From IMG/VR virus record IMGVR_UViG_3300028172_000069: a DNA stretch of 64,000 nucleotides; one strand, 5' to 3'. How positions within the stretch are numbered: position 1 is the first letter of the stretch; each line of letters opens with the position of its first letter. Made by a program: the position numbers and the translations under genes. This stretch comes from a virus. Taxonomy: Duplodnaviria > Caudoviricetes. Positions 2,844 to 23,192 of the stretch are shown in pieces. The notes below the pieces were generated by a model. That model did not search any database, was not told the DNA's origin, and saw only the letters and a program-made list of their open reading frames with translations.

Positions 2844-5354
2844 ATGGAAGCAACGCTAGACGTCCAGAACATTGCGTATGCGACCCTCGACATTGAGGGT
2901 TCGCGTGTGCCACCCACGATGAACTTCGTGGACTCTATCATGCTGCAGGAGGGATTTGCAATTGCGATCCCTGTCCTGCAACTGATCCTTAACGACCAAC
3001 GTGGCACGCTCAGTGCGGACATGAACATTCAAGACGGGACACTGGTGACGATCAAACTCGCCAAGACCCGCGAGAACGTGAAGACCCGCAAGTTCCGTAT
3101 CTGGGGTTTCCGCAAGGAGACTACAGCAGCAGGACCCAAGCTGATCGTGACGTGCATCCTCGACGTTCCCAAGTGGAGCGCGGGTGTCTTCACTGAGTCG
3201 ATTCGTGGATCGTCTAGCTCTGTGATCCAACAGATGGCGAGTCGTGCTGGTCTCAAGTTCGATGGGCCTGCTGGCACTGACGACGTGCAGACGTGGCTCA
3301 ATGTCAACAAGACCCGCAGCGCTTTCTGCGAAGACGTGGCAATGCGCGGCTACGCCTCTGGCCAGTCGTGCATGTACCGCCTGCTCAACCTCGACGCCGA
3401 GGTGCGCTACAAGGACCTGTTCGACGTCCTGAAGAACGAACCCAAGTGGAGCTTCCTCCAGAACACGCCAGAGGGTAGTGCGAAAGCCACACCTGTTGTG
3501 ATTCGTGAGACGCAGGACGGCAGCTCCTCGGGCTTCGCCACTCACATGATGAACTACGGGCAGAAGCAATACGAGCACAGCCTGAACGTTGCTGGGCAGT
3601 TGTCCACGCTGACGCTCGACGCGCCTCTGTTCGGTGCTGCACTCCCAATCAACGAGGACGTGCGTGGGCAGATCGCTGATCGCGGAGCCAAGGTGAACTA
3701 CACTGGCTTCGATACTGGCACCGAGCCTGCGCCAGCGTCTAACCTCCACATGTTCTACGAGAAGGCGTTCTATCAAAACTTCCGTTACCTGGGCTTGCTC
3801 AGTGAGCGGATCAACTTGCTCTCGGATGAATACACTGAGGTCAAGACCTTCGACTGCTGCGAGTATCAGCACTCCGACCAGGACAACCACGAGTTCAAGC
3901 CCTCGAAAGCTCTCGGTGGTAAGTGGCTGATCGGTGGCAAGACCATGTGGATCAAAGCTGGTCACAAGTACAGCGAAATCTACTACCTGTACCGTCCCGC
4001 TGTCATGGAGACTGGTGCAAGCTCCGCCGCTGGCAGTCCGAAGTCAGGCAGCGAGCAGAACGCGAAGGCGAACAACGGTCCAATCGACATTGCAGCCGCA
4101 CAAGCCGATGCAGGTCCAACTGCACAGCAAGCAGCCGCAGTTGACTCGACCACAACAGTATCGAACACGGCAGCCAGCGCGACTAAAGCAGCGCCAGCCG
4201 CAACAGGTGCAACCAACACGCTGAACGCCTTGAAGTCCTACGGTGCGAGCAACCCACTCGTACCGAGCACGCCAATCGGGGCGAATGGGCTTACGACTCC
4301 GCAGCTAGCCCAACAGGATTCGCTGCGCAACGCCGTTTCCCAGTTCAAGTCGTCCTCGGGTCCGCTGCGCGATCAGCTTGTCACCACAGGTAGCGGTACA
4401 AGCGCACTGGGCTCGCTCACTGGCTACAAGGCTCTGGTCAAGTACCCAGCCGATATCATCAAGGTGTTGGCGAATGGGCAGACCGATCCTCGCTATATTG
4501 CCCGTGAGATTGACCGTGCACGGAACGATAGCTCGTACCTGAAGAACAGCGCCATCCAACGTCTGACTCGCGCAGGTTCAGACATTACTGGCGTGCGCTT
4601 GCACAACATCGTCTCCGCAGCTACTGGTAACCGCGTGAATACGCAGGGCATCATTGGTGACGTGGTAGGCGGTGGCTTCTGGGGCAAAGACTTGCGCGAA
4701 GCTGGCATCACGCCTAGCCAGATCAAGCTCCCGATCCCAGACGTGCTCAGCGAAATCAATGACGCAACTGGCAAGCTCGGTGGTACGTTCCTGCGCAACG
4801 CGACAGGCATCGGCCTGACCACTGACAACGTCCTGATCAACCCTTACCAGACTGCTCGCAACATCGAGAAGTGGAGTAAGGAAACCAACCCTGAACGCCT
4901 GCTGGTTGAACAAGGTGCACGCGCCTACATCAGCACGTTCGGACACGTCAGCCCGTCAGAGGCAGCTACCACCATGACTGATGTTGGTAAGCTGGCAGCT
5001 GAGGTTGCCCTGATGTACAGCCGCAACGAAGTAATCGCGGATGGTCATCTGACTGACAACCAACAACGCAGCCTGTTGAAAGACACCCTGTTTACCTTCG
5101 GCGATCCGACGATCGTACCAGTCGTTGACTCGGTTGATCGCATCGTCAAGTACGGGGAATACCACGACGTAACATCCAGCAAGCAATTCGTGACCTGGGC
5201 CGACTACTATTCGATGGGTGCCAAGCTTGGCAATGCTGTCGAGAAGTGGGACTTCCCGTTCACGTTCCCTGGAGAAACGATCACCGCGGGAGAGGTGACA
5301 AACGGCAACGCCACTACGTTCGATGAGGACACCAAGAGATGGATGACAAGCTAA
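2844..5354 (+). CDS. Baseplate hub-like protein (gp27/gpD-like N-terminal ~385 aa) with Ala/Ser/Thr linker and long C-terminal extension
   Basis: 836 aa; synteny after the LysM gene; beta-rich N-half, low-complexity linker, unassigned C-half. Confidence 0.5.
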   Translation: MEATLDVQNIAYATLDIEGSRVPPTMNFVDSIMLQEGFAIAIPVLQLILNDQRGTLSADMNIQDGTLVTIKLAKTRENVKTRKFRIWGFRKETTAAGPKLIVTCILDVPKWSAGVFTESIRGSSSSVIQQMASRAGLKFDGPAGTDDVQTWLNVNKTRSAFCEDVAMRGYASGQSCMYRLLNLDAEVRYKDLFDVLKNEPKWSFLQNTPEGSAKATPVVIRETQDGSSSGFATHMMNYGQKQYEHSLNVAGQLSTLTLDAPLFGAALPINEDVRGQIADRGAKVNYTGFDTGTEPAPASNLHMFYEKAFYQNFRYLGLLSERINLLSDEYTEVKTFDCCEYQHSDQDNHEFKPSKALGGKWLIGGKTMWIKAGHKYSEIYYLYRPAVMETGASSAAGSPKSGSEQNAKANNGPIDIAAAQADAGPTAQQAAAVDSTTTVSNTAASATKAAPAATGATNTLNALKSYGASNPLVPSTPIGANGLTTPQLAQQDSLRNAVSQFKSSSGPLRDQLVTTGSGTSALGSLTGYKALVKYPADIIKVLANGQTDPRYIAREIDRARNDSSYLKNSAIQRLTRAGSDITGVRLHNIVSAATGNRVNTQGIIGDVVGGGFWGKDLREAGITPSQIKLPIPDVLSEINDATGKLGGTFLRNATGIGLTTDNVLINPYQTARNIEKWSKETNPERLLVEQGARAYISTFGHVSPSEAATTMTDVGKLAAEVALMYSRNEVIADGHLTDNQQRSLLKDTLFTFGDPTIVPVVDSVDRIVKYGEYHDVTSSKQFVTWADYYSMGAKLGNAVEKWDFPFTFPGETITAGEVTNGNATTFDEDTKRWMTS

Positions 5355-5584
5355 CCCGCGAATACCTGTTGGGTCTCATCACCAAGACCTCGTTCCAGTA
5401 TCGTGGCACCACCACGATCTGCACGCTGGACATTGATGGTTTCCCTGTGGCAGGCGAGAGTCACTGCGTCTTCCGTGACCAGTACAACAAGCAAGTTGGG
5501 GAGAAGGTGAGCTACGAAAATGCGCTCAAGCAGCTACGGCGGTTTGAAGAATACGCCCAACGCAAAACTGTGAAAGCGGATTGA
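5339..5584 (+). CDS. N4 Gp49/Sf6 gp66 family protein (candidate nucleotide-signal sponge)
   Basis: TTTICTLDIDGFPVAGESHCV..QYNKQVGEKVSYENALKQL..FEEY matches the recalled Phage_gp49_66 pattern. Confidence 0.62.
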   Translation: MDDKLTREYLLGLITKTSFQYRGTTTICTLDIDGFPVAGESHCVFRDQYNKQVGEKVSYENALKQLRRFEEYAQRKTVKAD

Positions 5585-5604
5585 AGTAACAGGAAACTAC
5601 GAAC

Positions 5605-6027
5605 ATGGCCGACCTTAATATCAAGGCACGGAAAATAACGGTTGAACTACGAGTCGACCACCTCGTGCCAGAGGAAACAACGCACCTGCTTCTGTCTGCA
5701 ATCCGGAGTTGTGGTGATCGAGCCTCTTTAGGTTCGACCCACCTTCTGGTGACATTCAAGCACATCGAAATGACCAGCGTGATGTTTGAGCACCTGCTCA
5801 CCGTCTACGACAAGTATCCAGCGTTCCGCATGGAGAAAGCGCAGCATCGCAGGCAACTCGGCGTGTTGGGGATGTTGTGTGGTCGGAAAGTCGTTGAGAA
5901 CAATGACCTGGGTCACACCATCGTCTTTCAATACAAGGACATGGTGATGCCTGATGAAGGGTCCTGCCTTCCCGATCCCATGTACATCGTCCATCCGAAG
6001 TACGTGGGCCCTCAACAAGTAATCTAA
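5605..6027 (+). CDS. Hypothetical protein
   Basis: 140 aa ORF, AGGA RBS and CGAAC-ATG start. Confidence 0.7.
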   Translation: MADLNIKARKITVELRVDHLVPEETTHLLLSAIRSCGDRASLGSTHLLVTFKHIEMTSVMFEHLLTVYDKYPAFRMEKAQHRRQLGVLGMLCGRKVVENNDLGHTIVFQYKDMVMPDEGSCLPDPMYIVHPKYVGPQQVI

Positions 6028-14093: not shown

Positions 14094-14105
14094 CACACGT
14101 CAGAG

Positions 14106-14129
14106 AGGCGGCCTTCGGGTCGCCTTTTT
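14106..14129 (+). terminator. Intrinsic terminator
   Basis: AGGCGGCC-TTCG-GGTCGCCT followed by TTTT. Confidence 0.8.
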
Positions 14130-14167: not shown

Positions 14168-14755
14168 ATGAACATATTCGCCACTGACCCAAGACCCATG
14201 GTAGCGGCCGCCCATCACTGTGACGTCCATGTAATCAAGATGATCCTTGAGACGGCGCAGTTGCTCTCGGCCGCACACGTCTTCTGCGACGGCAAGCAAG
14301 TAGCGTACAAGATGACCCACCAGCATCACCCGTGTGCCGTCTGGATACGCGAGAGTAAGTCGAACTACCGCTGGGCTTTCGACCTACTGGTCTGCCTGTG
14401 CGCAGAGTACACCTACCGCTTCGGTAAACGACACAAGACCCAAGATCATCTGATCGCTTTGGGTCACGTGCCTGACAACATTCCAGAAGACGATTTGACG
14501 GCCTTCGCAATGGCCATGCCTGACGAATTCCGCAGCAACAATCCGCACAAAAGCTATAAGCGCTACCTGCGTGCGAAGCTGGAGTCGTGGACGTTACGCG
14601 ACAAACCCATGCGCACGTCGTTCACCTATCGCGAAGTCCCCAAGCACCTGCTCACGGTGAGCACCCGAATCTTCCCGTGTATCCATCTAGGAGTTTTCCA
14701 TGAATCCGCTGCCAAGCACCAACCCGCTCGCCACGGTGTTGTCGTACCCTACTAA
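14168..14755 (+). CDS. Pyrimidine-dimer DNA glycosylase/endonuclease V-like protein
   Basis: MNIF...HCDVHVIKMILETAQLLS, THQHHPCAVW, EYTYRFGKRHK motifs of the DenV-like family. Confidence 0.75.
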   Translation: MNIFATDPRPMVAAAHHCDVHVIKMILETAQLLSAAHVFCDGKQVAYKMTHQHHPCAVWIRESKSNYRWAFDLLVCLCAEYTYRFGKRHKTQDHLIALGHVPDNIPEDDLTAFAMAMPDEFRSNNPHKSYKRYLRAKLESWTLRDKPMRTSFTYREVPKHLLTVSTRIFPCIHLGVFHESAAKHQPARHGVVVPY

Positions 14756-15455
14756 CACACAACTGGCGATGAACAAGGCCCACTTCGATCAGTTGTTGCG
14801 CGGCTACGGCCTGACAGACGTTTGGAACTGGATCGAAGAAAACAACATCGGTGTAGTGAACCCGTACCACAACACGCAGCACATGATGACCATTGCGCTG
14901 AATGGCTTCCGCATCTACCAGACCGAGCTGCTGCTTACTGGCGAGACGCAAGAACTCTACGGTCATATCAAGGTTCTGGTTGCAGGTATGCTGCACGACT
15001 TCAACCACAGCGGTGGTGAACATGCCGACGACGAGAACATCGAGAACGCTATCCACGACGGCCTCAACAAGATTGCGGGCACGCTTGATGCCAAGTTCGG
15101 CGAAGGGTTCAGTGACGAAGTGGAGCAACTGATCCGCTGTACCGAGTACCCGTTTGTGCGCATGCCGCACTCGCTTGCGGCCAAAGCACTACGCGACGCT
15201 GACCTGCTCCAGTCCATTGAACCCAACGGCATCACGCTGATCCTCGAAGGCCTGCGCTCTGAAATGCAGGTGCGCTTTGGTAAGCAGATCAGTGTGCAGG
15301 AAATGTACGAGGGCCAAGTCAAGTTCCTCGAGGCCGCCGAGCTGTTTACGCAAACAGGTCAAGCGCTCTGGGACGCATCCAAACACCACATGATCGAAGC
15401 GTGCCGCTGCTACGCCGAGTATCGCACTGGCAAACAACAGGAAGAACAAGCGTGA
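14700..15455 (+). CDS. HD-domain phosphohydrolase, class I cyclic-nucleotide PDE-like
   Basis: NPYHNTQH, AGMLHDFNHSG and RDADL motifs; GGAG RBS. Confidence 0.7.
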   Translation: MNPLPSTNPLATVLSYPTNTQLAMNKAHFDQLLRGYGLTDVWNWIEENNIGVVNPYHNTQHMMTIALNGFRIYQTELLLTGETQELYGHIKVLVAGMLHDFNHSGGEHADDENIENAIHDGLNKIAGTLDAKFGEGFSDEVEQLIRCTEYPFVRMPHSLAAKALRDADLLQSIEPNGITLILEGLRSEMQVRFGKQISVQEMYEGQVKFLEAAELFTQTGQALWDASKHHMIEACRCYAEYRTGKQQEEQA

Positions 15456-15880
15456 ACCAACAGGCCATTCTCAAGAAGTCCAAAACTTTCATCCTGCAAG
15501 CTCAGTTCGTGGAGCAACTTGCAGCATTGATCGAAGACGAACAGACCCTCATCCTTCAAGGTGAGGGTATCAAAATGGGTCCACTGCATTCTCGCGTTAT
15601 CTTCGGCCAAGTGCATCGCCGTAACTCTCGGGTGCGAGCACAGCCTGTATGGGTATTGCATGAAGGTCAGCCGATTGAGTTGGTGGACTACAAGGTTTCA
15701 TTCCTGCAGGCCATGTACACACCACACGACAGCCGCGTGGAGCAACAGATCAGCGTGATTATCCACAGCGCCGTGCTGTTCTCGCCTGAAACACAGGAAG
15801 CATATCCTGTGAGCATCCGTTTCCGCTACAACAACCACAACCCGCTCGACTTCACCAAAGCCTACATCACTTTCCTCTGA
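15452..15880 (+). CDS. Hypothetical protein
   Basis: GTG start overlapping the previous TGA. Confidence 0.6.
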   Translation: MNQQAILKKSKTFILQAQFVEQLAALIEDEQTLILQGEGIKMGPLHSRVIFGQVHRRNSRVRAQPVWVLHEGQPIELVDYKVSFLQAMYTPHDSRVEQQISVIIHSAVLFSPETQEAYPVSIRFRYNNHNPLDFTKAYITFL

Positions 15881-15887
15881 GGTGACC

Positions 15888-16598
15888 ATGAAGAATCTCT
15901 GGAATCGACTGTTCGGCGGTAAGCGTAAGCCAGAACCTGCAGAAGCTGCAACCCTGACAGGCAAAGAGAAAGAAAACTTTCTGCACCTGTTCATTGTGGA
16001 TGAACTGCTCAAGTACACAGGTAAGAGCGTTCGGGTGCGCAACAACGAAGCCCACGTCGAGTGCCCATACCACGCCAGTGGAACTACACCGACACTGTCG
16101 GTTGCGTTGTCCATGGGTGTAGGTCGCAAGCAGGGTATGTTCTACTGCTTTGCCTGTAACGAGCACGGCAACTGGAACAAGCTCGCACAGAAGGCAGGAC
16201 TTGCACCACTGCCCGTTGAACCTGATGACCCGCCAGAGTTGACACCTGTATTCCAAGGGTCTCTGGGGCGTCAGTACAATCGCGGCCAGCACATTAGCCG
16301 CGCGCATCGTCCAGGTCACACGCCAGCAGCGCAGGTGCACTACTTCGACGTGCAAGACCCCGCTGCTTGGGATCGCAGCTCACAGAGCCGCCAGGATAAC
16401 AGCAGCTCCACGCTCGCCAACATCGCGCTCATGGGTGCGGCACTGTCCGACAACGACACGCACCGCGAAAGCTGCGCAACACCAAGCACGACTACTCACG
16501 GTGAGCCAACGCGCAGCTATGCGCCTGACCCTACACCGAGCACTACCTACGACAGCCCATCGTCTACGGACTCAGGTAGTCCAGGCGGTTGCGACTGA
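15888..16598 (+). CDS. CHC2 (primase-type) zinc-finger protein with disordered Ser/Thr/Pro tail
   Basis: CPYH..TPTLSV...FYCFACNEHG motif; GAGGTG RBS. Confidence 0.7.
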   Translation: MKNLWNRLFGGKRKPEPAEAATLTGKEKENFLHLFIVDELLKYTGKSVRVRNNEAHVECPYHASGTTPTLSVALSMGVGRKQGMFYCFACNEHGNWNKLAQKAGLAPLPVEPDDPPELTPVFQGSLGRQYNRGQHISRAHRPGHTPAAQVHYFDVQDPAAWDRSSQSRQDNSSSTLANIALMGAALSDNDTHRESCATPSTTTHGEPTRSYAPDPTPSTTYDSPSSTDSGSPGGCD

Positions 16599-17251
16599 TG
16601 TTCTACACGGGCATTGGTAGCCGCGAAACTCCCAACCGCGTGTGTATGCTAATGTCCCGGTTTGCGCAGCTTCAATGGCGCAAGCCACGTTCTGGTGGGG
16701 CTATCCAAGCTGACGAATCTCAAGAGGTCGTCCCACTTGAACTCTACCTGCCGCGTCGTGGTTGGCGTGGTAAGGAAGGCATCTGGCAGTACACGCATGA
16801 GCAACTCCTCTTCGCTGACACCATCTGGAAGGAGGCGTTCCCATCTGACAAAGCTGTGGCAACTTGGACCCGTGATTTCTTCCGGCGCAACGTCTGGCAG
16901 ATCATGGGTCTTTGCGCATCTGTAAAGGAAGCTATATTCAGCGATTTTGTAATCTGCTGGACACCAGATGGTGCATTGACGATTCAAGACTACCAGCTAG
17001 GCGTCACCGGTGGTACTGGCATCGCAATCAACATCGCTTCAATCTACGGTGTACCCGTATACAACCTACAACGCCCAGATCACTTCCGGAAAGTCCTGAG
17101 CTGGTGCGTGCGAATGGAGCAAAAGCATGGACTCGTCTTTGAAGAAGCATCCCGTAGTTTTATCCGCGCAGCAACAGGCGAATACCTTGTTGCCGCTGAG
17201 CCTGAGCGCAGAGGAAGAGGACACCTTCCAATCTTGGCTCTATACGTTTAA
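16598..17251 (+). CDS. SLOG (DprA/Smf-like) nucleotide-binding protein
   Basis: YTGIGSRETP, RSGGA.QAD, FVICWTPDG and GGTGIAINIA motifs. Confidence 0.7.
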   Translation: MFYTGIGSRETPNRVCMLMSRFAQLQWRKPRSGGAIQADESQEVVPLELYLPRRGWRGKEGIWQYTHEQLLFADTIWKEAFPSDKAVATWTRDFFRRNVWQIMGLCASVKEAIFSDFVICWTPDGALTIQDYQLGVTGGTGIAINIASIYGVPVYNLQRPDHFRKVLSWCVRMEQKHGLVFEEASRSFIRAATGEYLVAAEPERRGRGHLPILALYV

Positions 17252-17402
17252 GGACGTCGCTCGCAAGACCATCGCCAATGTGGACGAAGTCGCTGAGGCG
17301 CACTGGCGTATGCTGTATGTCTGCACTGCACCCAAGGGTGCGCAAGAGGTGTACGACGAAATGTTTGCCCACGCTGGCAAGTGCTATCTAGAGGTGTGCT
17401 GA
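17187..17402 (+). CDS. Hypothetical protein
   Basis: Fills the gap; start uncertain (TTG 17187 assumed). Confidence 0.45.
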   Translation: MLPLSLSAEEEDTFQSWLYTFKDVARKTIANVDEVAEAHWRMLYVCTAPKGAQEVYDEMFAHAGKCYLEVC

Positions 17403-17965
17403 TGACTTTCCATATCGACTTCTCCAACTTCCCAATCGCCATTCGTCCGCCAAGCGACATGGTGAAAGTCAACTGCACGAAAGGGCCGCTGCTTGAAACG
17501 CCAGACGGAGCAATACACGCAGACGATCTGGTCAAGCAAATCTCCAAGAACCTGGATGCCAAGCTCACCATCACCGAGTTCGAGCGCCATCACATGGACA
17601 GTACGACCAAGAAGTTCTTTGACTCCTGGGTGAAGCCACAAGCTGCTGTGCCAGTTGAGAACTACGCGCTGCCTGTGTTCGACTCGTATGGCTTCCTGCA
17701 CTTCTCGCCAAAGCGCCCTGCTGATCCAAAGCGCAAGTACGGCGTGCAGGCGATAGTACGCGGCAACCTGTTCGAGGGGCGCAAGAACTTCCGTAGCCAT
17801 CGCAAAGCACGCGAGTGGGTACGCAAGCAACTCTCCTGTCAGATGTGGCCGTCGAGCACACAAGACAGCGGCTTGGCTAGCGGCATGGACCCAGTGACCA
17901 TGACGATCAGCTTCGACTTTACTGGCCCGCTCGACTCCAGCCATCTGAGCAAGGTGATGGTATGA
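17402..17965 (+). CDS. Hypothetical protein
   Basis: GAGGTG RBS; TGATG coupling. Confidence 0.65.
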   Translation: MTFHIDFSNFPIAIRPPSDMVKVNCTKGPLLETPDGAIHADDLVKQISKNLDAKLTITEFERHHMDSTTKKFFDSWVKPQAAVPVENYALPVFDSYGFLHFSPKRPADPKRKYGVQAIVRGNLFEGRKNFRSHRKAREWVRKQLSCQMWPSSTQDSGLASGMDPVTMTISFDFTGPLDSSHLSKVMV

Positions 17966-18243
17966 CCCCAGAAGATCAGTGTGCTGCCCTCGCCGCAGAT
18001 GAAGACGAACTGGCAAAGCCGTTGTCCTACGCTGTCGAACAACGCATCCGCTTCATCGACTTCCTGTTCGCTCATTACGGGTACGTCCGTCGCGAGTTCC
18101 TCATGGACTACTTCGGCCTGAGCATCGCGTCGGCGTCTCTGGACATTCAGCGCTACATCCGAATGACCGAGGACAATGTGTTCTACAACGCCAGTGCCAA
18201 GCGGTACGAGTCCACAAAAGCGTTCAAGCGCCTGTATCCCTGA
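17962..18243 (+). CDS. Stand-alone CapW/BrxR-type winged-helix DNA-binding domain (no WYL domain)
   Basis: RIRFIDFL...G.V.R..LMDYFGLS...ASLDIQRY....N..Y.AS.KRY....F..L matches the N-terminal wHTH of WYL regulators. Confidence 0.75.
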   Translation: MTPEDQCAALAADEDELAKPLSYAVEQRIRFIDFLFAHYGYVRREFLMDYFGLSIASASLDIQRYIRMTEDNVFYNASAKRYESTKAFKRLYP

Positions 18244-18252
18244 GGAGCCGAC

Positions 18253-18531
18253 ATGGCAAACAAAGCATTTCCCGGCTCCAAGCTGTTTGAGTTGAAGGCG
18301 ACTCACGGCTTGCCTCTGGACGTTGCAGTCGACCGCATCGTTAACACTGAACGCATGGTGATCGACTGGCAGGGCTTCATCGACCAAGCGCGTGCTCAAG
18401 GTTGGTACGACTTCCAGACGCTCGACGTGGCTGAGCAAGCCCTGACTGACGCTGACGTACCACGTGACTACCGCGACGCTGTGGTGTTGCGCATGAAAGC
18501 CTACGTCATGGAGAAGCGCCATGCCACGTGA
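18253..18531 (+). CDS. Mini-protein resembling an alanyl-tRNA synthetase helical segment
   Basis: GSKLFELKATHGLPLDV...E..VIDWQGF vs AlaRS G..AF.LYDTYGFP.DL....E....D..GF. Confidence 0.6.
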   Translation: MANKAFPGSKLFELKATHGLPLDVAVDRIVNTERMVIDWQGFIDQARAQGWYDFQTLDVAEQALTDADVPRDYRDAVVLRMKAYVMEKRHAT

Positions 18532-18739
18532 TCGCCTGTACCCACACCCAGGGTTCATCGTCTACAAGAACCGCGTAGAGGAGAACCCGCACACGTTCGA
18601 GCCCGAGCTGACCCGTGACATTGTTACTGAGGTTCATGACGAAAATCAGGCCAAGGAAATCGTAGCGCGGGAACGTGCCGCCGATCCCGATGCTGGTGAG
18701 AACTGGATTTATTATGAACCGGGAACCATCTACGACTAA
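18521..18739 (+). CDS. Hypothetical protein
   Basis: 72 aa; GGAG RBS. Confidence 0.6.
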   Translation: MPRDRLYPHPGFIVYKNRVEENPHTFEPELTRDIVTEVHDENQAKEIVARERAADPDAGENWIYYEPGTIYD

Positions 18740-18986
18740 GCGCCGCAAGCGTAAGCCCAAGGTGCGCGAGCCAATTCCGCAGAGCGTTTTCTACTACCCA
18801 GACATTGGTGAGTACGGCCGCACATCGGTGACGTCCTACCACGAAGTGAAATACTTCATCGACTGGGGACCCAACCCGAAGTGTACGGTGCACGGCCGCT
18901 TTCTTCCCGAGCATGACCTCTGGACGCGGTTAGACGACGACATGGACCAACAGGAAGACGAAGATGACCGAGACGAAGAAGATTAA
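18714..18986 (+). CDS. Hypothetical protein (basic N-terminus, acidic C-terminus)
   Basis: Start assumed at ATG 18714. Confidence 0.55.
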   Translation: MNREPSTTKRRKRKPKVREPIPQSVFYYPDIGEYGRTSVTSYHEVKYFIDWGPNPKCTVHGRFLPEHDLWTRLDDDMDQQEDEDDRDEED

Positions 18987-19989
18987 TCTGTGGGTGCCCG
19001 GTATGGGTACCATCTGGGAGCACCACAAGAACGGTATCGAGTACGAGGTGTACGACGTTACCAACGAAGATGCCGACGAGGAGCGTACGGACTATCGCAC
19101 CACCGTATCCTACATCGGACCTAATGGGAAGAAGTGGAGCAAGTCGCTTGAGCGCTTCCACGAGACCATGCTGTTCACTGGTAAGCATGCCGAGTACCCG
19201 ACCAAGGTTGTAGTCGGTCGTCCGGGTGTCAACCCTGGTCACTTCACGGTGCCGAAGTTCGAGGTTGTCTTCGATCCGAAGTTCGAGCCCGACGGTCCTG
19301 GTCTGTTCTACTACGTCAACTACAAAGAGTACAACGGCAAGACCACGATGCTCGAAGAAATCACCCAGCGCATTCGGGTGATGCTGCATGGCGTACCTCA
19401 GGAGCCGATCGCAGGCACGCGCACTGGCGACAACTTCAATGCCATGCAGGAGTACACAACGTTCGGGCATGTGTCCCAGTGCGAGCGCGACGAAATTGAC
19501 GCTCGTGGTCTGTGCTACATCGGGCAAGTGGGTAGCCCGTACGGTGTCGTGTGCTGGGGCCATCGCACGGCCAACGACATTCCGGTTCACGAAGCGATGT
19601 TGTACCACAAACTCCTGAAGGTGCTCGACAAGTACAAGGGCGAAATTGTTGACGACCTCCTAGTCCACAAGCTGTACGACGATTTCTACCAAGTGCTGCT
19701 ACGTGCCGTTCAGACACGACTGGTTTACGCACGTCAAGCGGGTGACGCTGCCCATATGTTGCAAATCATCGGACCTTCTGGCGATGACGACGCACGTATC
19801 ATCATGTTCCGCATTCCGTTCATCATGCACCCGCAGCCACGTCTAATGGAAGTGAGGATCGGCACCAACACGATCACCGCGTCGCTTGACGGTCGCATGG
19901 CACAAGCTCTGGGTGCGCTGTACCCGAACGATAACCTTGTGGGTGTAGTTCCACAGCCGAAGAAATCCATTGGCATGGAGGCAGAGTAA
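18964..19989 (+). CDS. Hypothetical protein with N-terminal DUF1653-like domain
   Basis: GTIWEHHKNGIEYEV......TVSY....GKKWSKSLERF pattern. Confidence 0.55.
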   Translation: MTETKKINLWVPGMGTIWEHHKNGIEYEVYDVTNEDADEERTDYRTTVSYIGPNGKKWSKSLERFHETMLFTGKHAEYPTKVVVGRPGVNPGHFTVPKFEVVFDPKFEPDGPGLFYYVNYKEYNGKTTMLEEITQRIRVMLHGVPQEPIAGTRTGDNFNAMQEYTTFGHVSQCERDEIDARGLCYIGQVGSPYGVVCWGHRTANDIPVHEAMLYHKLLKVLDKYKGEIVDDLLVHKLYDDFYQVLLRAVQTRLVYARQAGDAAHMLQIIGPSGDDDARIIMFRIPFIMHPQPRLMEVRIGTNTITASLDGRMAQALGALYPNDNLVGVVPQPKKSIGMEAE

Positions 19990-20435
19990 TGCAGCAAGGA
20001 AACCTGAACGTCACCATTCCGCAGGTCACGGTGCTGATCGACGAACAGGTCGACACCTTCTACCTACAGCCACTGGATGCCATCACGTTCCGCGAGATTG
20101 AGATTGCGCTGAACGCCAACATCGAGAAAGCGTTCGCCTACGGCTTTACGGTCACGGCTAATCCAGCGCAGGCTGCCGATGGCATCGTGATGATCGAGTA
20201 CACGCATCAGGGTACCCAGCACACTTACCGCTGCGAAGCCAAGTCGTTGAAGCTGCGTGCCGAGGAAGTGCTGCGGGCCAAGATCAACCTGGCCGCTGCT
20301 GCTGTGGAAGCTGCCCTCGAAGCGCTCAAGTCGTCACCGTCTGACGGCCGCCTGATCAACGTCGGGCGCACGCAAATCCAAAGCGGATTCATGGCACTGC
20401 GCCGCTCCATCGAACCGAACCCGGAGGCAATATGA
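19989..20435 (+). CDS. Acb2/Vs.4-like nucleotide-sponge domain fused to an N-terminal ~85 aa domain
   Basis: C-terminal DGRLINVGRTQIQSGFMALRRSIEP aligns with Acb2 [26 protein letters not shown] (recalled). Confidence 0.68.
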   Translation: MQQGNLNVTIPQVTVLIDEQVDTFYLQPLDAITFREIEIALNANIEKAFAYGFTVTANPAQAADGIVMIEYTHQGTQHTYRCEAKSLKLRAEEVLRAKINLAAAAVEAALEALKSSPSDGRLINVGRTQIQSGFMALRRSIEPNPEAI

Positions 20436-21052
20436 AGACGCTGGCCGAGTTCACCTCGCGCAATATCATCAAGGACAAGACTGCTGTAGAAGGCGGTTGG
20501 GTCAACAACTCGAAAGACAGCGGCGGTGAGACCAATCATGGCATCACGGCTGCGCTGGCGAATGACTATCGCACCAAGCTGGTATCCATGTTCAAGTGGG
20601 ACGGCACGATGAAGAACCTGAGCATCGACATGGCCTACTGGCTGTACGAGACTCACTTCTGGAATCGCCTGTATGCTGACGATCTGCTCAAGCGTCATCC
20701 TCTGTTTGCCGACAAGCTGTTCGACATGGCGATCAACATGGGTGTGACCACTGCCGGTTCGTATTTCCAGCAGGTGCTCAATGCCAACAACAACCAGGGT
20801 ACGCTGTACGCCGACCTGAAAGTCGATGGCTGGATCGGCCCAACCACGCTCAAAGCGCTCGACGCCTACATCAGCAAACGCGGCGTTGAAGGCATCAACC
20901 GTGCGCTGTGTGCGCTACTCGCTGAGCAAGGTCACCACTACCTGCAACTCGTCCAGAAGCGTGCTAAGGACGAGGAGTTCTACTACGGCTGGGCTGGTCG
21001 TGTTAGCCGTGACATGGGCATCTACATCAACGTGCTGGGAATCAAGGCATGA
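20432..21052 (+). CDS. Endolysin, glycoside hydrolase family 108 with PG-binding-3 domain
   Basis: EGGWVNNSKDSGGETNHGIT catalytic motif; LFDMAINMG, VDGWIGPTTL and FYYGW motifs. Confidence 0.9.
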   Translation: MKTLAEFTSRNIIKDKTAVEGGWVNNSKDSGGETNHGITAALANDYRTKLVSMFKWDGTMKNLSIDMAYWLYETHFWNRLYADDLLKRHPLFADKLFDMAINMGVTTAGSYFQQVLNANNNQGTLYADLKVDGWIGPTTLKALDAYISKRGVEGINRALCALLAEQGHHYLQLVQKRAKDEEFYYGWAGRVSRDMGIYINVLGIKA

Positions 21053-21504
21053 ACAGACCAAAGAAAAGTACCACGTGGAAAACCCCAGAGGGTGTGATGC
21101 TCGTGGTTGTTGGTATCATGGAGCACACCGACGTATTCCAGCCAGAGCACAACATCACCTTCGTGAACGTGCTGTATCTCAACGCGCCTGAAGACTTCCG
21201 CGCATCTGAGCTGATTTCCTTGCGCACGTTCAACGAGCACATGACCCAGGTTGGTTTGATGCTCGACGAAGGTAAGCGCCCGCGTCACCCATGGGAAGTC
21301 TATCTGGCGGATCGCGCAGATGGTTGCAAGGGTCACTTCGCCATCGCACGCTGGCACCCCAACGGGTATCAAGAAGTCTGGAACCTGCGCAAGCACACGT
21401 GGGGCGCATTCAGTGACGACGTCCTGACTCTGGAAGAAGCTGAGAAGATGCTCCAGTCAATCAGCTTCCATCCAATGACGCCCAGCATTCGGAGCCCGGT
21501 ATGA
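21049..21504 (+). CDS. Hypothetical protein
   Basis: 151 aa; ATGA overlap. Confidence 0.65.
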   Translation: MNRPKKSTTWKTPEGVMLVVVGIMEHTDVFQPEHNITFVNVLYLNAPEDFRASELISLRTFNEHMTQVGLMLDEGKRPRHPWEVYLADRADGCKGHFAIARWHPNGYQEVWNLRKHTWGAFSDDVLTLEEAEKMLQSISFHPMTPSIRSPV

Positions 21505-22334
21505 ATAATTTCCCAGAAGACACGGTGAAGTACCGTATCCAGATCATCTGCAACACCTTCTTCGGCCGCCAAGTGTCGCCGGATTTGGCGCAAGTGATTC
21601 AAGACACCCTCAATCAAGACGTACCGCCGTACTGCGCTGAGGACTTCAAGGTCCAGATCAAGATGCGCGTCGGTGTATACATTCGTGTCGATTGCTCCGT
21701 GCGCGGTGAAGAGCACTCGTATGACATTTACCCAGAGCAGCAGGACGAAATGCCTCACCTGCCGCCGCTGTCGCGTGAAGAATTAGCTGAGAGCGCGCGG
21801 CGCTACGAGCTGGCGCATCCACGCGTTCCAACCAAGCGCATCTTGATCGTTGCCATGAGCGATAACTTCGTCATCGGCAAAGAAGGTAAGCTGCCGTGGC
21901 ATATCCCGAACGACCTGAAGTTCTTCAAAGACCAGACGACTGGTCACCCACTGGTTGTCGGCCGCAAGACGTATCAGAGCATGCCTGACTTCGTGTGGAA
22001 GACGCGCACGCCGCACATCTTGACCCGCGACCCGCATAACTTCGAAGGTCCAAACTGTCCGTACCACGCTAGCGACTCACTGGGCTCGCTCGTACACTGC
22101 GCGGGTGAGAACTTCCGTACGGGCAAGGTGTTCATTGCTGGTGGTGCCGAAGTCTATCGCCAAGCACTTGACCAAGACCTGGTTGACGAAATGTTGGTCA
22201 CCCACGTTAAGGGTGTCTGGGCCGGCGACACCTTCTTCGAGTTCGTTCCTGGCTTCGGTCCAGGTGAAGTCGTGCTGGAAGACCCAGAGTTCACCGTCTC
22301 GCGCTACACGCGCTATGTCAAATTGGAGGCGTGA
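21501..22334 (+). CDS. folA: Dihydrofolate reductase with ~110 aa N-terminal extra domain
   Basis: IVAMSDNFVIGKEGKLPWHIPNDLKFFK..T.GHPLVVGRKTYQSM, FIAGGAEVY and GDTFF motifs. Confidence 0.9.
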   Translation: MNNFPEDTVKYRIQIICNTFFGRQVSPDLAQVIQDTLNQDVPPYCAEDFKVQIKMRVGVYIRVDCSVRGEEHSYDIYPEQQDEMPHLPPLSREELAESARRYELAHPRVPTKRILIVAMSDNFVIGKEGKLPWHIPNDLKFFKDQTTGHPLVVGRKTYQSMPDFVWKTRTPHILTRDPHNFEGPNCPYHASDSLGSLVHCAGENFRTGKVFIAGGAEVYRQALDQDLVDEMLVTHVKGVWAGDTFFEFVPGFGPGEVVLEDPEFTVSRYTRYVKLEA

Positions 22335-22810
22335 TGAAACGCGCACGGTACTACACAACCATTCAGGGCAAGCGTGCCACACGACGCATCAAGTGGTTCA
22401 ATCCGAAAGGCATCATCCACGAGAACGGCAAGCAGTACGTCGCCGCATTTGTGCTTGCAACTCTCGGCGAGACGGGCTTGAAGCTGCGCGCTGTCACGTC
22501 TCAGCTGGGCATCGACGGTCGCGGTAAGTGGGTGATTCCAGGCGTCATGGACTGTCCTGAGCCCATGTACACAGCAGCGTACAGTGTCGGCCTCGAAGTG
22601 GGTCGCATGACGCAGGGTGCCGAATACCTCATCAACCAGATGAACGAGCAATTAGAACGAGAGCGTGAGAACATGTGGCGTCCGCCTGTGGGTACACAGC
22701 GCGGTGTCCTGTCGGCGGAGCAAATCACGGCCGTCGAAGATCACGCCATTGAGCATCTGCCCATCAACCGCCTGAACCCGGGTGCAACTTTTCCAAAGCA
22801 GGGAGTCTAA
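22331..22810 (+). CDS. Hypothetical protein
   Basis: 159 aa; GGAGG RBS. Confidence 0.65.
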   Translation: MMKRARYYTTIQGKRATRRIKWFNPKGIIHENGKQYVAAFVLATLGETGLKLRAVTSQLGIDGRGKWVIPGVMDCPEPMYTAAYSVGLEVGRMTQGAEYLINQMNEQLERERENMWRPPVGTQRGVLSAEQITAVEDHAIEHLPINRLNPGATFPKQGV

Positions 22811-22830
22811 CCACAAACCAGAGGTAATCA

Positions 22831-23163
22831 ATGCGCAAATCAATCATGTTTGTTTACGAGGTGTTGGGTGACAGCACCGAGGTGTTCTTCATCCCGGACG
22901 CGGCGAAGCTGCCAAAGCCGGTGATTGACGCAATGAAGACGGCACGCAACACGGTGATGAATCGCGACGACTTGAGTGCACCTCAGACCGACGCGCACGA
23001 AATCATCACATCGGCGGTCAGCGAGGAATCGGCAGTCGAGTACATCGACGAGCCGTATAAAAAGTTTGTAGGTACGCTGCTGCCCTACAAAGTGCGTGGC
23101 TCCACCAGCGCGCTTAACGTGGGTGACAAACTATTCTACTTGCGCTGCGGTTTCGTGGCTTGA
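22831..23163 (+). CDS. Hypothetical protein
   Basis: 110 aa; GAGGT RBS. Confidence 0.7.
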   Translation: MRKSIMFVYEVLGDSTEVFFIPDAAKLPKPVIDAMKTARNTVMNRDDLSAPQTDAHEIITSAVSEESAVEYIDEPYKKFVGTLLPYKVRGSTSALNVGDKLFYLRCGFVA

Positions 23164-23168
23164 CTCAA

Positions 23169-23192
23169 AACAGGGTGCTTCGGCGCCCTGTT
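23169..23192 (+). terminator. Probable terminator hairpin
   Basis: AACAGGGTGC-TTCG-GCGCCCTGTT; weak U tract. Confidence 0.6.

Follow-up and report, generated by a model that had tools for sequence, protein, structure and literature searches.

Does a phage gene that encodes the DNA-binding head of a CapW/BrxR-type repressor, and no sensor, act against the defences of the host, or does it encode an ordinary regulator? The gene lies in the window analysed here, a 64,000-nt stretch of a single Caudoviricetes contig (137,684 bp, 55.8% GC, rated about 52% complete) whose baseplate-hub protein shares 70% identity with its counterpart in the Pseudomonas jumbo phage PaBG. The question has some weight, as CapW/BrxR-type WYL repressors govern many anti-phage systems. 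The original prediction held that the 93-aa product could keep defence operons switched off during infection or poison the host regulator. The explanation we favour, to which we give about an even chance, is that the protein is a working sensor-less DNA-binding regulator, predicted to be a dimer, with a target other than a CapW/BrxR operator. The ORF list gives a translation identical to the one first quoted for this gene, and the following features were assigned to it:

17962..18243 (+): winged-helix (wHTH) ORF, 93 aa, stop codon included (ORF list)
17962..18027 (+): acidic N-terminal helix, residues 1–22, outside the wHTH (model and sequence comparison)
18028..18240 (+): wHTH core, residues 23–93, three helices and a two-strand wing (aligned to 7tb5; AF2 model)
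18115..18147 (+): recognition helix, residues 52–62, GLSIASASLDI (Sm CapW alignment and column frequencies)
17951..17957 (+): Shine-Dalgarno-like AAGGTGA, 5 nt before the wHTH ATG (read from the sequence)

The start codon overlaps the TGA stop of the upstream ORF as ATGA and, given this overlap and the AAGGTGA 5 nt before the ATG, the gene appears to be translationally coupled and operon-internal. Residues 1–22 carry a net charge of about −5 (counted from the sequence), are modelled as a helix of lower confidence (H3–18, pLDDT 65–77 in the AF2 model) and are common only to the PaBG-like relatives P0001, P0002 and P0004; this acidic helix might mask the DNA-binding face of the wHTH. The core itself runs to the C-terminus of the protein, ending directly after the wing.

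That this core tracks the N-terminal wHTH of BrxR/CapW, as first proposed, is borne out by both sequence and fold. A phmmer search of PDB sequences aligned residues 23–93 to residues 22–92 of P. aeruginosa PA17 CapW (7tb5, E 1.3e-12), with weaker matches to CapW 9c5g and 7tb6 (about 5e-6) and, weaker than to CapW, to BrxR 7qfz (1e-4) and 7t8k (7e-3); the family profile also scores CapW higher than BrxR. From 95 family sequences, AlphaFold2 gave a model with a mean pLDDT of 90.8 and a predicted secondary structure of H23–39, H44–51, H55–68, E73–76 and E81–84. A Foldseek comparison with CapW and BrxR had been called for at the outset, and all of the best 15 PDB matches (15/15) were CapW/BrxR chains, the best being 7tb5 (rmsd 0.7 Å over 71 columns, 38% identity). 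BrxR, which represses BREX and defence islands (Acinetobacter 7T8K/7T8L; E. fergusonii pEFER 7QFZ), shares the same wHTH fold at Foldseek E-values of 1.6e-6 to 1e-3 and gives its name to the Pfam domain of the phage protein's family (PF26109, WHD_BrxR). This domain is precomputed on the relatives P0001 (98% identical), P0002, P0003 and P0004 and is carried by 88–98% of the members of the nearest ESM Atlas clusters. Scans of the 93-aa protein and three relatives against Pfam, PHROGs, NCBIfam and PADLOC returned no match, the Pfam scans being empty because the PF26109 model is absent from the copy searched. It is already known that Pfam delimits the WHD_BrxR domain and that automatic annotation names such proteins; a full-text literature search returned nothing on phage CapW/BrxR winged helices that stand alone.

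CapW (7TB5 from PA17, 7TB6 from S. maltophilia and 9C5G from R. leguminosarum) is a CBASS repressor of wHTH-WYL-WCX architecture. The phage protein resembles its N-terminal wHTH but has neither the linker helices, nor the WYL domain with its RWHVR ssDNA-binding motif, nor the WCX/BrxR_CTD domain, and hence no ssDNA switch; it is also phage-encoded, and its gene adjoins no defence operon. No WYL or WCX sequence was found, whether within the ORF, after it or at any other place on the 137,684-bp contig, and the family profile detected no second WHD_BrxR copy there. The initial reading that the protein stops without WYL/WCX was therefore correct, as the ORF ends with the wing, an unrelated ORF follows and the contig has a single family copy. 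Ligand-triggered release of the CapW type is impossible for a stand-alone wHTH, which has no sensor. A word index search found no longer (fused) relatives sharing words with the 93-aa protein and, in an exhaustive representative search, the nearest full-length WYL proteins (about 290–300 aa) appeared only from E about 1e-9, at no more than 42% identity.

The protein is far from alone in this architecture. We count as stand-alone phage WHD_BrxR proteins those whose wHTH stops no more than about 8 residues short of the C-terminus, as it does here. The representative search returned 414 matches at E ≤ 1e-3, of which the best (about 45) were nearly all 72–160 aa in length with the wHTH at the C-terminus. 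A scan of IMG/VR with two degenerate peptide patterns derived from a 14-row alignment recovered 63 viral loci on contigs of 5 to 315 kb, and in every case (63/63) the ORF ended no more than 5 residues from the wing. The same query against 185,579 species genomes gave eight loci, seven of them short and one a 304-aa WYL regulator; an integrase lies near the annotated short locus of one bacterial genome (L018). Among 28 ESM Atlas matches sharing the WHD_BrxR family, the three short clusters listed (85–96 aa) were 57–69% viral, and the listed 296-aa WYL+BrxR_CTD cluster was 100% bacterial; full-length clusters have both PF13280 and PF26107, which the short clusters lack. Cultured examples are few: a search of 50,697 cultured-phage records met the short form only in Stenotrophomonas phage Sonora (CPT_Sonora_088), BFVD adds a 97-aa short protein from Pantoea phage LIET2, and no cultured phage matched the region by megablast. 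The proteins of Sonora, LIET2 and many uncultured phages fall in the same length class as the window protein, share its C-terminal boundary and the signature YAVEQR(L/I)RFIDFL...YG...DYFG, and are all annotated as hypothetical; the window copy differs in having a lineage-specific acidic N-terminal helix and a rare serine at position 57. A gene annotated as WYL domain-containing in the cultured, 181-kb Salmonella phage Arash (OQ632216.1, 78787–78975) also matches the wHTH, so some phages may carry sensor-bearing forms as well.

The 160 wHTH cores placed in a maximum-likelihood tree span 70 columns, too few to settle the deep order; here the window protein falls in a supported clade of short forms and most full-length forms group apart from that clade; the short/long label changes 19 times on the tree against about 53 times in shuffles. 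From these comparisons the 93-aa protein is no recent truncation and is a member of a broad short WHD_BrxR family. The gene had originally been treated as a single capture, a view that gives way here to that of one member of an old and diverse phage family. The same data bear on whether the gene is all that is left of a captured full-length WYL regulator, decaying and without function, as the presence of the N-terminal domain alone could suggest. More than 140 distinct short sequences stop at the same boundary, relatives in syntenic phages are 57–98% conserved, the downstream DNA contains no WYL-like sequence, and the ribosome-binding site and translational coupling are intact; with the family data already contradicting it, we regard decay as barely credible.

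Some family members carry N-terminal fusions or other extensions. One of these (P0008; L011 4863–5300, 145 aa) is an XRE/CI-like HTH fused to WHD_BrxR, encoded directly upstream of a 1022-aa primase on an integrase-bearing element that was found on at least 15 contigs. Tandem short WHD_BrxR paralogues were observed in uncultured phages at L013 6001–6953, L061 3998–4437 and L027 3839–5383, the L013 and L061 pairs being clear. More than one ORF fell in the wHTH cluster at 14 of the 77 loci, a count into which single-linkage clustering may have drawn unrelated ORFs. Both the XRE/CI-like fusion and the tandem paralogues are traits typical of phage regulators.

Can such a truncated head still bind DNA? 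In Sm CapW, mutation of R32 alone, or of S42, Q45 and S47 together, abolishes DNA binding (PMC9122588). These residues align to R44, S54, S57 and S59 of the window protein, so that three are kept (R44, S54 and S59 corresponding to R32, S42 and S47) and the glutamine is replaced by serine. Glutamine occupies this position in 95% of full-length forms, and serine in 3% of short forms. The DNA-contact columns are otherwise well conserved among the short forms (R44 93%, S54 75%, Q57 61%, S/T59 95%, D61 100%, Y65 96%, K80 78% with K/R80 at 98%, and Y82 83%). As to the early caveat that the recognition helix differs from that of BrxR, position 57 has Ser for the usual Gln, and S54 and S59 are kept. 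Compared with P. aeruginosa CapW, 4 of the 11 positions of the recognition helix differ.

A second, more systematic difference between the two classes lies in helices alpha1 and alpha2, where the column frequencies are as follows:

Position 30: R in 86% of short forms; E in 57% of full-length forms
Position 35: L in 72% of short forms; R in 66% of full-length forms
Position 38: H/Q in short forms; W in 90% of full-length forms
Position 39: Y in 79% of short forms; E in 52% of full-length forms
Position 46: A or varied in short forms; D in 76% of full-length forms
Position 50: Y/F in 86% of short forms; mixed in full-length forms

With R30, L35, H38, Y39, F46 and Y50, the window protein carries the short-form signature (R30, L35, Y39, Y/F50) as opposed to the full-length one (E30, R35, W38, E39, D46), a remodelled alpha1/alpha2 surface compared with CapW. 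When two copies were modelled together, a symmetric homodimer through alpha1/alpha2 was predicted (ipSAE 0.68 against 0.00 for the best control), with three runs agreeing on 100% of contacts and partner pLDDT of at least 83. Among proteins of solved structure, 20 of 30 pairs and 1 of 23 single chains reach this mark; the pass may partly reflect model memory, because CapW/BrxR dimers have already been solved. The predicted contacts involve residues 31, 34, 37–39, 43, 46 and 49–50, so that the class-specific alpha1/alpha2 residues lie at or adjoining the predicted interface. This apparent coincidence of a class-specific signature with a modelled self-dimer is new.

Full-length dimers are held together by linker helices and domain-swapped WYL domains (PMC9122589), and ssDNA bound to WYL moves the two wHTH domains about 13 Å apart (PMC11662680). 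The dimerisation domain is indeed missing from the phage protein, as had been pointed out, but the force of that caveat is softened by the predicted alpha1/alpha2 homodimer and the class-specific residues found there: since the short-form signature overlaps the predicted interface, the loss may be compensated. Under the regulator reading that we prefer, two copies would pair through alpha1/alpha2, so that their two recognition helices would suit a dyad site of roughly 20 bp. Having lost the ssDNA-sensing switch, such a dimer would be expected to bind double-stranded DNA constitutively, and it would most likely repress transcription.

The genomic setting of the gene is that of a tightly packed plus-strand block (14168–23160) between two terminator-like hairpins, in which it directly follows an orphan gene:

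14102..14129 (+): terminator-like hairpin, closing the unit upstream of the wHTH gene block
17381..17965 (+): orphan gene, 187–194 aa, upstream of the wHTH gene and translationally coupled to it (ATGA overlap)
23169..23192 (+): terminator-like hairpin, closing the gene block that contains the wHTH gene

Other products of the block are an HD phosphohydrolase, a primase-type zinc ribbon, a DprA-like protein, a GH108 endolysin and a DHFR. No sigma-70-like promoter was found before the block or anywhere upstream on the plus strand, and no defence system adjoins the wHTH gene in the block. The wHTH and orphan genes occur together before a conserved small PaBG_00049-like gene, both here and in a syntenic metagenomic relative (L002), and PaBG lacks the pair; a profile search found no WHD_BrxR anywhere in PaBG. 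As judged from this gene-order comparison, which is new, the wHTH gene and its orphan partner are an accessory insertion in a PaBG-like jumbo phage. Homologues of the orphan protein were found only in the closest relatives, the identical protein occurring on 59 contigs (the longest 265 kb). It matched nothing in Pfam, PHROG or PADLOC, an ESM Atlas feature search was empty, and its AF2 model (pLDDT 50) was too poor for a fold to be assigned.

Three other genes of this stretch were noted in passing. Right after the wHTH gene, a 92-aa ORF (18253–18531, +) weakly matches a class II AlaRS core (PF01411 positions 379–424, E 6.5e-5, below cutoff) and has no counterpart in PaBG or L002. A 238-aa protein (15882–16598, +) has a DnaG-type CHC2 zinc ribbon (PF01807, 24.6 bits) as its sole domain match, followed by a long low-complexity tail rich in Ser, Thr and Pro, and no primase catalytic domain was detected in it. 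The 148-aa protein encoded at 19989–20435 (+) matches the Acb2/Tad1 hairpin domain below the 27-bit cutoff (PF24729, E 3.7e-5, 24.3 bits); on the same profile its homologues in L002 and PaBG (PaBG_00041) score 33.6 and 24.3 bits, respectively, making it a candidate sponge for cyclic nucleotides, with an additional N-terminal segment.

What might the protein bind? A five-copy box with the core ACTACTGATT(T/G)CAGT lies in the −35/−10 spacer of early promoters, and it recurs in PaBG:

Window 23281, 28216, 46003, 46442 and 53480: early-promoter spacer box ACTACTGATT(T/G)CAGT
PaBG (KF147891), around 4470, 20620, 116540 and 116660: the same spacer box

The palindrome TACTGA-TT-TCAGTA was considered as a wHTH operator and rejected, the box being present, as ACTACTGATTGCAGT, in promoters of PaBG, which has no WHD_BrxR; the dyad-boxed early promoter cassettes were rejected as targets on the same ground, PaBG having them too. 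Since both the box and the surrounding promoter cassettes are conserved between the two phages, they do not depend on the wHTH protein, and whatever binds the box must be a factor common to both phages or supplied by the host. The exclusion of this conserved promoter box as the target is likewise new. Across the 137.7 kb, about half of the genome, the only multi-copy palindromes besides this box were terminator stems; the 26 long inverted repeats form no family, and the long single ones are terminators or, for two examined, lie inside ORFs. Neither an inverted repeat nor a palindrome was found near the wHTH gene, in contrast to BrxR, which binds 11-bp inverted repeats or a roughly 23–25-bp pseudo-palindrome near its own promoter. 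CapW/BrxR repressors as a class bind a palindromic site that overlaps the promoter of the defence operon beside them. Up to 150 bp upstream of 61 short-family genes, inverted repeats were not enriched overall (mean best score 6.6 vs 6.4), unlike the situation in BrxR, where 193 of 347 homologues have an upstream inverted repeat (PMC9122601).

We therefore weighed several readings of what such a protein does. Ordinary regulation, at a promoter of the phage, of a mobile element or of the host other than a CapW/BrxR operator, is ranked somewhat above the silencing of defence, which in its most direct form would make the protein an uninducible mimic: a dimer sitting on CapW/BrxR operators and keeping CBASS, BREX or other defence off despite phage-generated ssDNA. 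Kinship speaks for this, as the characterised relatives of the domain all repress defence operons (PMC9122588, PMC9122589, PMC9122601), and so do the mostly viral distribution of short forms as against bacterial full-length ones, the accessory status of a gene that PaBG lacks, and the presence in the same block of the Acb2/Tad1-like candidate anti-CBASS sponge (24.3 bits; L002 homologue 33.6). The recognition helix also matches that of P. aeruginosa CapW except at 4 of 11 positions, but the Gln-to-Ser change strikes a contact residue defined by mutation, and S57 occurs in only 3% of short forms. In one Frateuria genome the short form encoded by a prophage and the full-length regulator resident there have almost identical recognition helices; the shared motif is, however, the family consensus, and in a second genome with both forms the helices differ. 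With the best full-length relative only 42% identical, nothing points to the capture of a host regulator, and BrxR/CapW operators vary from system to system. The benefit to the phage is also questionable: uninducible CapW mutants leave CBASS protection against lytic lambda uncompromised (PMC11662680) and, in V. cholerae, a first infection is blocked without any need for BrxR derepression (bioRxiv 10.1101/2025.11.13.688357), so that holding an operon at its basal level would gain little per cycle. Taken together, we consider the mimic unlikely, though not remote. Extended to the whole phage-borne family, as transcription-level counter-defence that mimics the CapW/BrxR DNA-binding head, the proposal is a shade more doubtful; if true, the family would keep CBASS, BREX and other islands basal despite infection ssDNA, blunting the 'priming' of survivors and neighbouring infections. 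The further suggestion that the protein poisons the host regulator, forming mixed dimers that inactivate or lock CapW/BrxR, could draw on the shared fold and on a predicted self-contact that uses the wHTH itself. Full-length dimers, however, rely on linker helices and domain-swapped WYL domains that the phage protein lacks (PMC9122589), short and full-length forms have systematically different alpha1/alpha2 residues, and inactivation of a repressor would raise, not lower, defence expression; such poisoning seems to us highly improbable.

A different kind of regulator is suggested by the position of the gene itself. Anti-CRISPR-associated (Aca) proteins are HTH proteins that repress acr operons, and phages also encode AmrZ homologues, relatives of host regulators that repress immunity. 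The window protein is alike in concept to both, as a small, host-factor-like phage DNA-binding protein that would affect defence or counter-defence, but the folds and families differ. An Aca-like role would have it autoregulate its own accessory module, be it the orphan gene or the larger block to which the Acb2-like gene belongs, and is consistent with a small, predicted dimeric protein whose gene directly follows, and is translationally coupled to, an orphan accessory gene that PaBG also lacks. Aca autoregulators are recognised by an HTH gene downstream of an anti-defence gene and by an inverted-repeat operator. Here the upstream gene is an orphan, the packed genes leave no intergenic space, neither the pair nor the block is preceded by a sigma-70-like promoter, and no inverted repeat lies nearby. 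Moreover, the orphan partner is not conserved beyond the PaBG-like lineage, but the wHTH is. We regard autoregulation of this kind as quite improbable, and a sensor-less regulator with another target remains the explanation we prefer.

A widespread, mostly viral family of DNA-binding heads that may dimerise alone offers a concrete handle on how phages deal with the regulation of defence; alternatively, bacteria and phages would share an old DNA-binding module that phages use for ordinary regulation. Either answer would give a function to hundreds of phage genes now annotated as 'hypothetical'. Beyond single lineages, no neighbouring gene was conserved across the 77 loci. Six prophage-like loci (L018, L019, L024, L030, L033 and L064) have an ORF of about 455 aa, belonging to one cluster, about 1.1–3.8 kb from the short wHTH. 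In L018 (Paraburkholderia nodosa; 3541–4908 and 4930–5709), this ORF encodes a reverse transcriptase with generic RT/DRT-type PADLOC matches, and it adjoins a Lar-like restriction-alleviation fusion and an integrase.
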